Shown here piece by piece: positions 25,969 to 35,272 of a DNA stretch of 40,901 nucleotides. The position numbers were made by a program, and so were the translations under genes. How positions within the stretch are numbered: the stretch's first letter is position 1; the number at the start of each line of letters is the position of its first letter. Source of the stretch: a virus (Duplodnaviria; Heunggongvirae; Uroviricota; Caudoviricetes); IMG/VR virus record IMGVR_UViG_2563366888_000019, positions 1 through 40,901 of that record; one strand, written 5' to 3'. Under the pieces are notes generated by a model. It was not told the DNA's origin. It did no database searches and saw only the letters and a program-made list of their open reading frames with translations.

Positions 25969-26045
25969 GTGGCATTAGCTCAGTTGGACAGAGCAACCGC
26001 CTTCTAAGCGGTTGGTCGCAGGTTCGAATCCTGCATGCCACGCCA
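25969..26045 (+). tRNA. tRNA-Arg (anticodon UCU)
   Basis: 77 nt; acceptor stem GTGGCAT/ATGCCAC, T-loop GGTTCGAATCC, anticodon loop CTTCTAA, discriminator G and encoded CCA; close to host argU-type tRNA as recalled. Confidence 0.85.
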
Positions 26046-26705: not shown

Positions 26706-28181
26706 TTAAGCATACGGGTCATAATCTGTGATGGCCTTGCCTTGCTGGTTCTGCTGCCAGGGAAGTCGCAGGCGCTTCGACACCGGGAAAGCAAACGTCA
26801 GCAGCAGCGCATCGCCTTTACCCGGCGAACGCCCAAGTCGCTCTTTGATATCTTCCTTCGGTTCGATAACGATTTTACCGTCCACTCGAACTTTGTACTC
26901 TGCCGCCGACAGGTCGTCTGCAGTTTCCTGGTCATCCAGCATGCCGCCCAGCCTCAGCCATGTCTTACATGAGTTGAACATCTCCCCACGCTTGTTGAGC
27001 ATCTGCGGGTCAGTAGACGCGCCACCGAACGGAACAAGTTGCCATGTACGACCCCAGCCGTCACCGATTGACTTCAGACCAGTTCCGTAACCGAAGTCGA
27101 TGAACACTGCGTCAGCCTGGTACTGGTCTTCAAAGTCAGCGATACGCTTCGCCATAATCAGATCGTCAGTGGTCTTGTTGCCAGTCCACAGCACCTTACT
27201 GTGCAGCCCCTGCCGCAGGTATATCACAGCGTCATCAACGCCTGAGTATGCCGGGTCAACGCCGATTATCACCGGAGCATGTGCAACCTGCGCAGCGGTG
27301 ACCACCCGTTTCATTGCCTCGTCAGTAAGTCCGGTAGGGATAAACTGCAATTCAGATGCATCCGGGAATATGCCGCGCACACGGATTTTAACGAAGTCGC
27401 TGTCTTCCCCGTAGTCATCAACCCATTTCTGCAACTGCTGTTTGTTGGTGCCTTCCACCGTCCGGCTGTCAATCTGCGCAGTTTTCCAGCGGTGTTTATA
27501 TTTGCGGAAACATTCGCGGAAACGTCCGGTATTACGCGTCGGGTTTCCGAACGCCACCCAGATAATCTCAGTGTCTTCGTCCGTTAGCGCACCCTCGGCA
27601 ACTTCCCACACCAGATCCGCAATGTTCGACGCTTCATCGAATACCACGATGATGCGTTTGCGCTCGTTGTGTAGTCCGGCGAATGCCTCAGTGTTGTGCT
27701 CAGACCAGGGTATTGCGTCAGCTCGCCACCGCTTGTCGTGTCCAGGATCATTGCTGTACATCGCGGTAGCGGTACAGGTAAACCAGTCTTTCGTGATAGC
27801 AAGGTTCGACCACTTGATAATTTCCGGCCAGGTCTTCGTTCGTAGCTGGTTGTCGGTGTTGGCGGTCACCACAACCTTACAATCCTCGCAAGTGGACATG
27901 CCCCAGTTGATCAGCATTGAGATGAATGCGGATTTACCAATACCGTGACCCGAAGCGCGTGCCAGCATAAGCGGCTGATAGCGCGTCTCTGGATTCTGCA
28001 GGTGATCACGTATCTCTCGGAACGCATCAGCCTGCCACTGACGTGGACCGGTGGCATGTGCCAGTTCAGTCCCATCTTCCCCCCACGGGAACGCATAGAG
28101 GGCATAGCCAAGCGGATCGTGAGTGAACCCTGCAATATCCTCGATTAACTGCTCTTCAGGAGATAACGCTGTATCTGTCAC
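26706..28181 (-). CDS. terminase large subunit (491 aa)
   Basis: Walker A-like SGHGIGKS; GTG start overlapping TerS stop; position before portal. Confidence 0.8.
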   Translation of the reverse strand: MTDTALSPEEQLIEDIAGFTHDPLGYALYAFPWGEDGTELAHATGPRQWQADAFREIRDHLQNPETRYQPLMLARASGHGIGKSAFISMLINWGMSTCEDCKVVVTANTDNQLRTKTWPEIIKWSNLAITKDWFTCTATAMYSNDPGHDKRWRADAIPWSEHNTEAFAGLHNERKRIIVVFDEASNIADLVWEVAEGALTDEDTEIIWVAFGNPTRNTGRFRECFRKYKHRWKTAQIDSRTVEGTNKQQLQKWVDDYGEDSDFVKIRVRGIFPDASELQFIPTGLTDEAMKRVVTAAQVAHAPVIIGVDPAYSGVDDAVIYLRQGLHSKVLWTGNKTTDDLIMAKRIADFEDQYQADAVFIDFGYGTGLKSIGDGWGRTWQLVPFGGASTDPQMLNKRGEMFNSCKTWLRLGGMLDDQETADDLSAAEYKVRVDGKIVIEPKEDIKERLGRSPGKGDALLLTFAFPVSKRLRLPWQQNQQGKAITDYDPYA

Positions 28182-32338: not shown

Positions 32339-33139
32339 TTACTTGATAAATCCTGCCGCCTTTCCCCGCCTGTATTCCTCCATCAGCCACTGCGCCGGTG
32401 TTATTCCCCCAAGGGTGGCGGCGTTAGGCATGCACCCGAAACTTCGCCCAGGTGGATGGTAAACGTCTCTCCCTGTGTCCGGAGGTGTACTCATGGGCTC
32501 TGGCTTTGCCTGTATGCTGATCACCGGATCGGGTATCTGCTGTCCGGAAGCCACCTTTTTCGCCCAATCATCGAGCAGCCTGCGCGCGTGTTTCTCAACC
32601 TCAATCTCGCTAAGCTGGCGCTGATACATTGCACGGCGGGTATCACATACGACCCAGTACATAACCGGATGTCGCCACGGGAATCTTTCGGGACCACCAG
32701 GATATAAACTTTTTTCCTTGCTGTACCGGTGAAACTCCGCCATCACATCGTCAATGGTGACGCCAAGAACCATCTTGCTGTCTTTACACCACTTGATGAA
32801 TTGCCCTGGCGACGGCCAGAACGGAGACTCACTGGCGCGGGCGTGGCGCATACCAGCAGAAACCTGTTCACGGGTTCGGATCCCCCCTTCGGCAAACGCA
32901 GCAATCCACTGCTGTTTTGCAGCAACTTCCTGCTCTGGCGTCTTCAGGTTGGTTACCACTGCCGCCGGAAACAGTTGTTTCAGCTGTTTGAAAAGGGCAT
33001 CAACAAGCCTCTCTGCTGACATGTTCACCACGTTGTCATTGTTGGTGTACTGATGCTCATAACCTGACATGCGAGAAAGGGCTTCTCCGTCACGGTTTTG
33101 TATCGCGGTAAAAACGTTGTTCACAAGAAATCCTCCCAT
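32339..33139 (-). CDS. replication protein P-like helicase loader (266 aa, start uncertain)
   Basis: SPFWPSPGQFIKWC matches the lambda P PFLPSPGQFVAWC region as recalled; follows O-like gene. Confidence 0.7.
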   Translation of the reverse strand: MGGFLVNNVFTAIQNRDGEALSRMSGYEHQYTNNDNVVNMSAERLVDALFKQLKQLFPAAVVTNLKTPEQEVAAKQQWIAAFAEGGIRTREQVSAGMRHARASESPFWPSPGQFIKWCKDSKMVLGVTIDDVMAEFHRYSKEKSLYPGGPERFPWRHPVMYWVVCDTRRAMYQRQLSEIEVEKHARRLLDDWAKKVASGQQIPDPVISIQAKPEPMSTPPDTGRDVYHPPGRSFGCMPNAATLGGITPAQWLMEEYRRGKAAGFIK

Positions 33140-33936
33140 GCTTCAGGGCTGTTCCAGTGCGGAACGTTGTTATCAGGTAATGTTGATTGCTTCTGTCTGC
33201 TAATCTGCAGCCGCCTTGCCAGCTTCTGCTCCCACTGTGCCTGATGGTATGCCTTACCCTCAGCCATCCAGTAAATTCTGAACTCTGCAAGTTCCTGTGC
33301 CGTTGGCAGACTGTCCAGGTAGATCCCCTGCAATGAGCTTTTCCGAAGAAAGTCATCTGATGGTTGCCATTGTTCATGCATGACAAATTTGCCTAATTGC
33401 CCTAGCCCACCAGGAGGAATAAAGTTATTCATCACGGCGTTGTTTGCGCCGGGGTCATGAGGCACAGAATCCCCGTTTTTTGTCCTGCTCTCCCTCTCTT
33501 GGTTAAATGACTGGTTATATGACTGGTTCTGGATCCCGTTTTTGGGATCATTCAACATCCCGTTTTTGGGATCATTCAACATCCCGTTTTTGGGTATATT
33601 CCCTTTTTCGGTAACATTACCGTTTTCGGGTTCATTGCCACCCTCACGGTTGCCTTTAATGTTCCCGTTTTTGGTTATATTAAGAGAGAAAACCCGCACT
33701 CTTTTTGTCGCTCCCTTTCTCTCTCCGGTATCTGAAATAAGCCCCATTTTCATGAGCGATATAAGCCCGGCCTGCACGGTTTTTTTATTCAGGCAAGTGT
33801 CTTTAACGAGGCGTTCTATGCTGGGGTAGCAGAGGTTATATTCATCGGCTCTGTCAGCCATCGAGAGCAGTATGAGCTTTAATGATGAGCTACCTGGATC
33901 TGTCTCCCAGGCCCAATCTGTTGCATGTCTGCTCAT
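33121..33936 (-). CDS. replication initiator O-like protein with internal origin (271 aa)
   Basis: N-terminal HTH-type domain; iteron array inside the CDS encodes PKNGMLND repeats; GGAG SD. Confidence 0.7.
   Translation of the reverse strand: MSRHATDWAWETDPGSSSLKLILLSMADRADEYNLCYPSIERLVKDTCLNKKTVQAGLISLMKMGLISDTGERKGATKRVRVFSLNITKNGNIKGNREGGNEPENGNVTEKGNIPKNGMLNDPKNGMLNDPKNGIQNQSYNQSFNQERESRTKNGDSVPHDPGANNAVMNNFIPPGGLGQLGKFVMHEQWQPSDDFLRKSSLQGIYLDSLPTAQELAEFRIYWMAEGKAYHQAQWEQKLARRLQISRQKQSTLPDNNVPHWNSPEAWEDFL
33533..33680. repeat. origin iterons (3 near-perfect 24-bp repeats plus about 3 degenerate copies)
   Basis: ATCCCGTTTTTGGGATCATTCAAC x2, ATCCCGTTTTTGGGTA, then degenerate CCGTTTT-containing copies; each has internal dyad ATCCC-N6-GGGAT. 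Confidence 0.7.
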
Positions 33937-34248: not shown

Positions 34249-34302
34249 AATAGATATGAAAAGACCGCCGGATGGCGGTCTACAGAGGGTTGTGGCTGGA
34301 TA

Positions 34303-34533
34303 TCATGAGTAGAAGAAGTATGCCAGTTCTGCTTTTGAGCGCAGCCATTGTCTTGTTTTACAGGCTTTAAAAAGCCCATTCATCAATACCTTACCTGGCA
34401 TTTTGCGCTTACCTGTTAAGTGAGTCTGGATATAGTGACTCGTCGTTCCGGCTTCCTGTGCGAAGGCTTCACGCTCATCCGGAGTAAGTGCAAGCCAGTG
34501 CTTTTTGAAATCGAAATGTCCGTTATCGCTCAT
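34303..34533 (-). CDS. Cro-like HTH regulator (76 aa)
   Basis: first gene of minus-strand early operon, divergent from repressor; HTH-like EAFAQEAGTTSHYIQTHL. Confidence 0.5.
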   Translation of the reverse strand: MSDNGHFDFKKHWLALTPDEREAFAQEAGTTSHYIQTHLTGKRKMPGKVLMNGLFKACKTRQWLRSKAELAYFFYS

Positions 34534-34545
34534 AGCTATTGCCTG

Positions 34546-34569
34546 ATATTTATTTCAGATAATAAATAT
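34546..34569. promoter_or_regulatory. AT-rich inverted repeat ATATTTATT-N6-AATAAATAT
   Basis: perfect 9-bp arms adjacent to Cro-like start; not a LexA box. Confidence 0.35.
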
Positions 34570-34585
34570 TCACCTATAAGGTAAC
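34569..34585. promoter_or_regulatory. operator-like palindrome TTCACCTATAAGGTAAC (site 9)
   Basis: divergent immunity region. Confidence 0.45.
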
Positions 34586-34599
34586 AAAAATCAAGGATA

Positions 34600-34687: not shown

Positions 34688-35272
34688 ATGAAAAGTATCC
34701 AGGACGTCCGCAGGCAAAATCTCAACGACTTGATCGACCGTGAATTCAATGGTGTTCAGACGCGGATGGCTGAAAAACTTGGAACTCAGGCAAATCTGGT
34801 AAACCGCTGGGCTCTTGGCAAGAAGGTTATCGGCGACCAGGTTGCGCGAAAAATTGAAGCTGCCGCCAATAAACCCCGTAACTGGCTTGATATCGATCGC
34901 TCGCTTTCTCAGGAAGGTTTTCAGCCTGTCGGACCAAGCGACATTGGTCAACTGGCGGCTCACAACCTGGAACGCTGGATGAGCGAAAGCCGCGACCTTT
35001 CAACGCAGGGAAAACTTCACCGCGCATCCGGCGTCGCCCAGGTGACAATCAGCCGCCTGTTAAACAATGAGGTCAGCGTTTCCATTTCCACCCTGGAGAA
35101 TGTTGCATCCGCATTCGGGCGTCACGGCTATGAATTACTGATTCACCCGCACGACCCTGCGACTATCAACTATGACCGCTCGCGCTACGCTTTGTTACCC
35201 GAAACCGAGAAAGCAAAGATCGAAAGTTACATTGAATTTGTCATCAACCAGAACGAAAAAAACAAACAATAA
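34688..35272 (+). CDS. prophage repressor candidate, tandem HTH, no S24 peptidase domain (194 aa)
   Basis: two HTH-like segments (QTRMAEKLGTQANLVNRWALG and ASGVAQVTISRLLNNEVSVS); no Ser-Lys autocleavage motifs; divergent from Cro-like; weak SD; terminator follows. Confidence 0.55.
   Translation: MKSIQDVRRQNLNDLIDREFNGVQTRMAEKLGTQANLVNRWALGKKVIGDQVARKIEAAANKPRNWLDIDRSLSQEGFQPVGPSDIGQLAAHNLERWMSESRDLSTQGKLHRASGVAQVTISRLLNNEVSVSISTLENVASAFGRHGYELLIHPHDPATINYDRSRYALLPETEKAKIESYIEFVINQNEKNKQ

Follow-up and report, generated by a model that had tools for sequence, protein, structure and literature searches.

The question raised by this locus is whether a cluster of short direct repeats, lying inside the coding sequence of a phage replication initiator, is the origin from which the phage replicates. 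The repeats were analysed in a stretch of viral DNA of 40,901 nucleotides (IMG/VR record IMGVR_UViG_2563366888_000019), which as a whole is called the window below. Judged by its sequence, the region is a phiV10-like (Uetakevirus, epsilon15-like) temperate Escherichia coli phage or prophage: the 816-bp initiator gene is 96-99% identical to genes of phages EC.W1-9, phiv142-3, PAS61 and phiV10, and the first 25 kb of the window are mostly matched by the same phages. The anatomy of the array, the conservation of both of its repeat types at the DNA level, the coupling of the repeats to a winged-helix domain and a modular exchange with the lambda O protein are documented in the following sections. 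We consider it probable that the repeats are the replication origin of this phage, placed within the linker-coding part of its own initiator gene; the arrangement would work like the ori-within-O of phage lambda, the origin activity itself being what we infer.

Iterons and boxes within the initiator gene

Tandem Repeats Finder, the check proposed in the initial annotation of the locus, reported a tandem array at 33533-33594 with a period of 24, 2.6 copies, 100% matches and a score of 124. Three near-perfect 24-bp repeats had been described there; two perfect 24-mers were indeed found, but the third unit is only 75% identical over 24 nt and keeps a 14-nt core. When this core, CCCAAAAACGGGAT, was searched with up to three mismatches, eight matches were obtained in the 40.9 kb, six of them within 33533-33675. 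As 3.4 matches are expected in the whole window and none of 100 shuffles reached eight, the repeats are real, lie where they had been placed and are far beyond chance. No other iteron cluster was found in the window, the two remaining matches being isolated sites with three mismatches each. The array is located within the initiator open reading frame on the minus strand, in which all window copies are read in one frame as NIPKNGMLNDPKNGMLNDPKNGIQ, that is, as the PKNGMLND-type peptide array noticed at the outset.

Six cores of the form CC-RAAAAC-GG are present between 33533 and 33677 (Table 1), spaced in gene sense by 45, 18, 18, 24 and 24 bp. A dyad ATCCC-N6-GGGAT had been ascribed to each repeat. 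In its exact form it is found in only two copies, at 33533-33548 and 33557-33572, and the other cores keep CC(C)-N6-GG(G) only. In core 3, position 33604 is A in the window (AAA, Lys) versus C (AAC, Asn) in 56 of 57 related alleles, which moves this core one step further from the consensus.

A seventh core-like site lies 63 bp from the array. Its central codon is polymorphic among the 57 alleles (second position A in 22, G in 21 and C in 14), so that a conserved function is unlikely; to judge from this alignment, the site is probably non-functional. It includes an in-frame A AAA AAC heptamer, the classical -1 slippery pattern, and a frameshift signal at 33470-33485 was considered and rejected on account of the same polymorphism. 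The plus strand, which is antisense to the initiator gene, has terminator-like hairpins with a T5 run behind them at 33543-33562 and 33567-33586. Each pairs the right arm of an iteron with the left arm of the following one. These hairpins were rejected as real terminators and are probably by-products of adjacent dyads, although they could make antisense transcription pause or promote slippage.

Beyond the last iteron in gene sense, three 12-bp boxes (33495-33530), absent from the initial description, directly adjoin the array. A purine-rich run extends from them to about 33470, and a 61-nt stretch is 70% purine on the gene-sense strand. Boxes and purine-rich run together are a candidate unwinding or second binding element. 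The most AT-rich flanking 40-mers reach 57% AT downstream (90th percentile of the window) and 68% AT upstream (95th percentile), and they do not figure among the 15 least stable 40-mers of the window. In the same scan, no match to a DnaA box was found in 32.8-34.7 kb, nor any match to the IHF consensus.

Conservation of the repeats as DNA

Variation was examined in a close set of 83 sequences, comprising 80 viral contigs, the window, phiV10 and phage BP9. The gene ranges from 792 to 888 nt and contains one to five perfect 24-mers, the mode being two; BP9 has one 24-bp unit fewer, phiV10 has one 12-bp box more, and the protein databases hold forms of up to 311 residues with eight PKNG cores. 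We propose that the copy number (1-8) shifts by slippage and that the protein survives such changes. Among the 57 distinct alleles of the same length, not one synonymous variable site was observed in codons 113-150 (33487-33600, 38 codons), a segment that spans the 12-bp boxes together with iterons 4-6. The N- and C-terminal domains have 0.21 such sites per codon, from which about eight would be expected in this segment (Poisson P of about 3e-4). The spacers between the degenerate cores are variable in the same alleles.

The distant set consisted of 80 homologues of the N-terminal domain from different species (Acinetobacter, Vibrio, Pseudoalteromonas, Marinomonas, several Enterobacterales and a few Betaproteobacteria), to which four phages, PPompW, Edwardsiella GF-2, Vibrio H20 and Acinetobacter AP22, were added. 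In these four, which share the N-terminal domain, related repeats with a mostly 24-bp period stand in the corresponding place, and near-perfect palindromic iterons are seen in GF-2 (ATCCCAAAATTGGGAT) and AP22 (ACCCAAATTTGGGT). Homologous O genes that replicate although they are devoid of repeats had been named beforehand as the observation that would speak against an origin, and the comparison came out in favour of the initial reading. CCRAnnnnGG cores were found to cluster at residues 100-160, with at least two in-frame copies in 68 of 79 distant homologues, and no repeats were found in SPN1S and Tyrion, relatives that share only the C-terminal domain.

The use of codons within the motif is uneven. 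Proline in the PxxG motifs of the linker is encoded by CCC in 153 of 181 cases (85%), versus 188 of 1053 (18%) elsewhere in the same genes. The codon that follows is dominated by AAA (78) and GAA (26), AAG and GAG being missing among the 12 commonest codons listed. Where threonine or serine replaces the motif proline, an xCC codon is kept, and the central amino acids vary (N/I/F/Y) while CC...GG stays. Furthermore, each of the three reading frames is represented among the DNA cores, which give PKNG-type peptides 123 times, [ST]QKR[ND] (for example SQKRN) 29 times and PKT[EG] (for example PKTE) 11 times, and 27 of 45 loci contain the core in at least two frames.

The boxes behave in the same way. 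In 43 of 52 distinct distant segments, the last iteron is followed by three or more RAAYC boxes, at a density eight-fold higher than elsewhere in the genes. Their spacing is 12 bp in 44 instances and 13 bp in 39, so that the boxes change frame; they are read in more than one frame in 44 of the 52 segments, and in Vibrio H20 the box AGAACCAGTCAT is read as QNQS and then as EPV. The CCC bias, the three-frame cores and the frame-changing boxes together indicate that DNA rather than peptide is selected. By this sequence comparison, the gene carries two conserved double-stranded DNA elements within its coding sequence, which are hard to explain by peptide selection, and the PKNGMLND peptide repeat would be largely a by-product of DNA sites in a tolerant, disordered linker. 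Covariation between the arms was also looked for; the outer dyad pairing (ACC with GGT, CCC with GGG) was inconsistent in the motif lists and no covariation is claimed.

The initiator, its module and its gene neighbourhood

Three regions can be distinguished in the initiator of 271 residues (Table 1). In the AlphaFold2 model, residues 1-89 (predicted local distance difference test, pLDDT, 74-91) form four helices followed by two strands, a single winged helix. The C-terminal domain was poorly modelled (mean pLDDT 48.6); the alignment used was shallow, the protein search for the family alignment having given almost only E. coli variants. The iteron cores are encoded by residues 88-134, between HTH_36, whose fold ends at about residue 89, and the DnaT-like domain, which begins at residue 181. 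Since the fold is confident up to residue 89 and pLDDT is below 32 for residues 90-180, the iterons are encoded where the fold ends and the disordered linker starts. Foldseek, queried with the model, returned generic winged-helix proteins only (E>1e-3), plasmid RepA N-terminal domains ranking 28-43; at the level of a predicted structure, the fold search does not discriminate between winged-helix families.

The gene had been called O-like, which is appropriate for its role and layout but not for its domains, these being Pfam HTH_36 and DnaT rather than Phage_rep_O. No match to Phage_rep_O (PF04492) was obtained at E<=0.01, whereas lambda O used as a control scores 5.7e-36; BLASTP against lambda O gave nothing significant; and hhalign of a 60-member family profile against lambda O, for which the relatives gathered on the lambda side were all 100%-identical copies, gave a non-significant E of 0.038 (probability 1.4%). 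On these grounds, the initiator is not detectably a member of the lambda O family. The DnaT C-terminal domains in the Protein Data Bank (6AEP, 4OU6 and 2RU8) align to residues 181-264 of the initiator (E of 7e-21 to about 1e-20). Orthology to DnaT was rejected, as only residues 180-265 align, to DnaT residues 85-170, and the N-terminus is HTH_36. Public databases name the gene 'primosomal protein I', 'DnaT' or even 'pyocin large subunit-like protein'; names such as the first two are misleading, because only the last 85 or so residues resemble DnaT. With E. coli DnaT the initiator thus has in common the C-terminal single-stranded-DNA-binding domain of about 85 residues; the N-terminal two-thirds are unlike it, and the gene stands in a phage early operon beside P.

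A natural chimera was found in Edwardsiella phage GF-2. Over residues 1-139, with the N-terminal domain and the repeats of the family, its 'O' protein is 52% identical to the window protein, while its last 144 residues are 62% identical to the C-terminal half of lambda O (2e-67), and a P gene follows. The block formed by N-terminal domain and repeats has therefore been exchanged in nature for the lambda block of N-terminal domain and ori. Among 60 family members scanned, HTH_36 was present in all 60, and the C-terminal domain was DnaT in six, Phg_2220_C in three and DnaA_N in two. The gene downstream matched a helicase-loader or DnaB family in at least 16 of 54 cases (P 13, DnaB_C 3, IstB 2, AAA_25 5, where the DnaB_C and AAA_25 counts may overlap). 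The two homologues with a DnaA N-terminal (domain I) module have it at the C-terminus in place of the DnaT-like domain, and one downstream gene also contains DnaA_N; these modules suggest a further way of recruiting the host helicase. The N-domain family as a whole comprises 567 clusters at 50% identity (E<=1e-10), and at least two hallmark linker peptides were counted in 98 of 123 full-length representatives of such clusters.

The coordinates of the features are collected in Table 1. The P-like gene directly downstream of the initiator is 31% identical to lambda P (E 1e-35). Two start candidates were considered for it, GTG at 33124, which shares bases with the initiator stop (GTGA) and has GGGAGGA in front of it, and ATG at 33139. 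The first is probably the start; in the phiV10 annotation the P-gene start overlaps the initiator by 4 nt, which suggests translational coupling. The gene order resembles that of the lambda early-right region (pR, cro, terminator, small open reading frame, O, P), and transcription from the control region continues into the initiator gene and over the repeats. The phiV10 reference record holds, in the 6.8 kb around the initiator gene, CDS and terminator features only. The initiator gene is present in 424 of 5426 complete E. coli genomes.

Table 1. Positions of the repeats, protein domains and neighbouring genes (window coordinates unless a residue range or another record is given; cores and boxes numbered or listed in gene sense)
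Feature	Position	Strand	Details
Perfect tandem part	33533..33594		Two identical 24-bp units (gene sense, AATGATCCCAAAAACGGGATGTTG register), then the 14-nt core of a third
Core 1 (first), degenerate	33662..33677		TAACCAAAAACGGGAA; starts about where the N-domain fold ends
Core 2, degenerate	33617..33632		AACCCGAAAACGGTAA
Core 3, degenerate	33599..33614		TTACCGAAAAAGGGAA
Core 4	33581..33596		TACCCAAAAACGGGAT; core intact, outer dyad broken
Core 5	33557..33572		ATCCCAAAAACGGGAT; full 5+5 dyad
Core 6 (last)	33533..33548		ATCCCAAAAACGGGAT; full 5+5 dyad
Three 12-bp boxes after last iteron	33495..33530		AGAACCAGTCAT / ATAACCAGTCAT / TTAACCAAGAGA; Tandem Repeats Finder 33500-33528, period 12
Seventh core-like site	33470..33485		GGACAAAAAACGGGGA
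Stretch without synonymous polymorphism	33487..33600		Iterons 4-6 and 12-bp boxes
Initiator gene (271 residues)	33936..33121	-	Open reading frame listing
N-terminal winged helix	about residues 1-89, 33670-33936	-	Pfam HTH_36, residues 18-67 (1.8e-10); AlphaFold2
Disordered linker	about residues 90-180	-	AlphaFold2 pLDDT <32
DnaT-like C-terminal domain	about residues 181-265, 33142-33396	-	Pfam DnaT DNA-binding domain, residues 184-252 (1.1e-15)
Lambda P homologue (helicase loader)	32339..33124	-	Pfam Phage_lambda_P, 1.5e-56
Early-right control region, upstream of initiator	34262..34587	-	Promoter and terminator scan
Promoter-like site	34587-34559	-	Promoter/terminator scan
cro-position gene	34533-34303	-	Control region
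Terminator	34281-34262	-	Scan; terminator in the same place in the phiV10 annotation
Divergent repressor gene	34688-35272	divergent	Open reading frame listing, Pfam, phiV10 annotation
GF-2 chimeric initiator	1801-2643 of the GF-2 stretch examined		Three copies of the near-perfect 16-bp palindrome ATCCCAAAATTGGGAT

A phiV10-type module of repressor, initiator and P was also met in two records of other size and class: near the end of the 138-kb record of BP9, which is classified as a Vequintavirus (PP488543.1, 133.4-137.2 kb), and at 114.9 kb of the unannotated 115-kb record of phage PH444. In both it looks like a mis-assembly or a co-assembled prophage and not like a genuine part of the phage. 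Elsewhere in the window, a tRNA-Arg (anticodon tct) lies within the phage genome at 25969-26045 on the plus strand, and Tandem Repeats Finder reported an imperfect 21-bp tandem repeat at 27235-27275 (two copies, 80% matches).

Probable origin function, alternatives and significance

In lambda, the origin consists of O-binding iterons and an AT-rich tract in the middle of gene O; lambda has four iterons, Stx phages have six (PMC7466680). The parallel with ori-within-O drawn in the initial annotation is supported by the position of the repeats in the linker after the winged helix, the P homologue, the gene order, the three-frame and synonymous conservation and the GF-2 fusion. Both systems, and the Stx phages 933W and P27 as well, carry their repeats midway through the initiator gene, immediately behind the part for the N-terminal DNA-binding domain, as units of about 16-19 bp with A-tracts and internal dyads, which are complete in only two of the window cores; the P homologue is downstream, and a promoter, a cro-position gene and a terminator are upstream. 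The spacing is 20-24 bp in lambda and 18-24 bp in the main array of the window, whose outlying first core is 45 bp off, and copy number varies in both, four versus six in lambda and Stx phages and one to eight in the family of the window. The description of the iteron sequence as distinct proved half right: the core of the window, TCCC-AAAAAC-GGGA, resembles TCCCTC-AAAAC-GAGGGA of lambda, but its dyad is 3 bp shorter. The two systems differ in that the window initiator shows neither a Phage_rep_O match nor significant similarity to lambda O, that its C-terminal domain is DnaT-like and not Phg_2220_C, and that three 12/13-bp boxes occupy the position of a block with 75-80% AT. The lambda iterons (spaced by 20, 24 and 23 bp) are moreover in different frames, whereas those of the window are in one frame and hence yield a peptide repeat.

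Iteron plasmid origins, such as RK2 oriV with TrfA, pPS10 with RepA and F with RepE, contain a 13-mer unwinding element and direct repeats at intervals of about two helical turns, to which a winged-helix initiator binds. The window has direct repeats at this two-turn distance, a winged-helix initiator that is predicted to bind them, and 12/13-bp repeats at the position of the 13-mers. It differs in that the origin would lie inside the initiator coding sequence, the phage encodes its own helicase loader, only one winged helix is seen in the initiator (model of residues 1-89) in place of the WH1-WH2 pair, and no DnaA box was found in the 32.8-34.7 kb interval.

A third point of comparison is the DopC/DopE pair of Cellvibrionales and Oceanospirillales, domesticated and chromosomal, in which an HTH_36 plus DnaT_C gene stands beside a P-like gene (Brezellec et al. 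2017, PMC5509034). DopC was reported to be without iterons and not to act as an origin, and a remote HTH_36 relation of lambda O was claimed from HHpred (PMC5509034). The two-gene architecture is identical, an HTH_36 N-terminal domain with a DnaT C-terminal motif followed by a lambda-P-like gene, but the window gene is phage-borne with an array of iterons and boxes, while DopC is chromosomal and reported to be iteron-less. The window gene looks like the free-living phage form of the DopC architecture. That the phage form has iterons and DopC has none fits repeats going with origin function and not with the protein.

By analogy with lambda O/ori and the iteron plasmids, the iterons would be bound by the N-terminal winged helix, which would probably sit on the dyad sites as a dimer, to give an O-some-like complex on A-tract-bent DNA. 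The 12/13-bp boxes and the purine-rich stretch would be the place where the duplex opens or single strands are held. The C-terminal domain, DnaT-like here and lambda-O-type or DnaA-domain-I-like in relatives, would recruit the helicase loader and DnaB, in this phage P-DnaB. Firing may be helped, as it is in lambda, when rightward early transcription crosses the gene.

Several points weigh against an origin at this place. The literature search returned no experiment on binding, unwinding or autonomous replication for the phage or the family, and no published origin was found for phiV10, epsilon15 or the initiator family, an earlier mention in the epsilon15 or phiV10 papers being possible. The homology of the N-terminal domain to lambda O is undetectable by Pfam, BLASTP and hhalign, and no strongly AT-rich unwinding block lies beside the iterons. 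As the full dyad is present in only two copies, dimer binding at every site is uncertain. The lack of synonymous polymorphism could result partly from homogenisation among repeats. Finally, repeat copies within a gene arise by duplication and are not independent counts, which is why the evidence across taxa and across frames carries the argument.

Other functions can be proposed for the same repeats. As binding sites of the initiator, they might mainly serve autoregulation, control copy number by handcuffing or exclude related phages, with replication starting elsewhere in the genome. Plasmid iterons also serve control, conservation of binding sites is equally compatible with a regulatory role, and no strong AT-rich block adjoins the array. 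We nevertheless regard this explanation as unlikely, given that the three-box element directly follows the last iteron in most homologues, that the whole module swaps with the lambda O N-domain-plus-ori block in GF-2, and that the window has no second cluster but only two isolated 3-mismatch sites. A role at the RNA level or for another factor (such as a pause or frameshift signal in translation, a structure in the mRNA or a site for a host protein that has nothing to do with the initiator) appears very improbable. The CCC AAA AAC runs look slippery, the exact A AAA AAC heptamer is present at 33470-33485, and the inter-iteron hairpins with T5 score as terminator-like on the plus strand; however, the heptamer is polymorphic in relatives, motif copies in three frames would not be tolerable for a frameshift signal, and the hairpins are a by-product of adjacent dyads. 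The motif moreover co-occurs with the N-terminal DNA-binding domain and not with any C-terminal domain or downstream gene.

Equally small, in our estimation, is the chance that the repeats are slippage-prone, low-complexity coding sequence for a flexible N/G/K/P-rich linker, in which the peptide is selected and the DNA has no function. Such a linker would agree with the wide conservation of the motif N-x-P-K-N-G-x-L (hallmark peptides in 98/123 representatives), with copy numbers that vary by whole units and with the single reading frame of all window copies. It would leave unexplained why the rare proline codon CCC fills 85% of motif positions against 18% elsewhere, why one DNA core in three frames gives unrelated peptides, why boxes at 13-bp spacing change frame, and why CC...GG is kept while the central residues vary (N/I/F/Y); dyad symmetry, besides, is meaningless for a peptide. 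Codon bias, box frames and three-frame cores have already largely refuted selection on the peptide alone. A replication origin stays the probable function of the repeats.

A wider proposal is made tentatively, with less than even confidence. The winged-helix coding region, the CC-RAAAAC-GG iterons and the three RAAYC boxes (12/13-bp) may form a portable, frame-independent 'origin cassette'. It would define a large undescribed family of phage initiators in Gammaproteobacteria and some Betaproteobacteria, fused at will to a DnaT-like domain, a lambda-O-type domain or DnaA domain I. The boxes would then be a new unwinding or single-strand-binding element replacing the lambda AT-rich tract, and the family would be the phage source of DopC/DopE.

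The principle of an origin within the initiator gene is classical, so that a specialist will not be surprised by it. The arrangement is a familiar one, seen here in a large initiator family where it was previously unannotated, and that it is conserved across the family and independently of frame is a welcome extra, not something unexpected. With the same sites read in three frames, the family offers a clean natural example of a DNA element constraining coding sequence. It also supplies a phage counterpart for the domesticated DopC/DopE helicase-loading pair. The likely origin is now placed for the phiV10-like phages, which serve as O157 reporter phages and whose prophages occur in 424 of 5426 complete E. 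coli genomes. It provides a simple sequence rule, CC-RAAAAC-GG cores and three RAAYC boxes after an HTH_36 domain, by which origins can be sought in many phages and prophages of Acinetobacter, Vibrio, Pseudoalteromonas and Enterobacterales that have no annotation.

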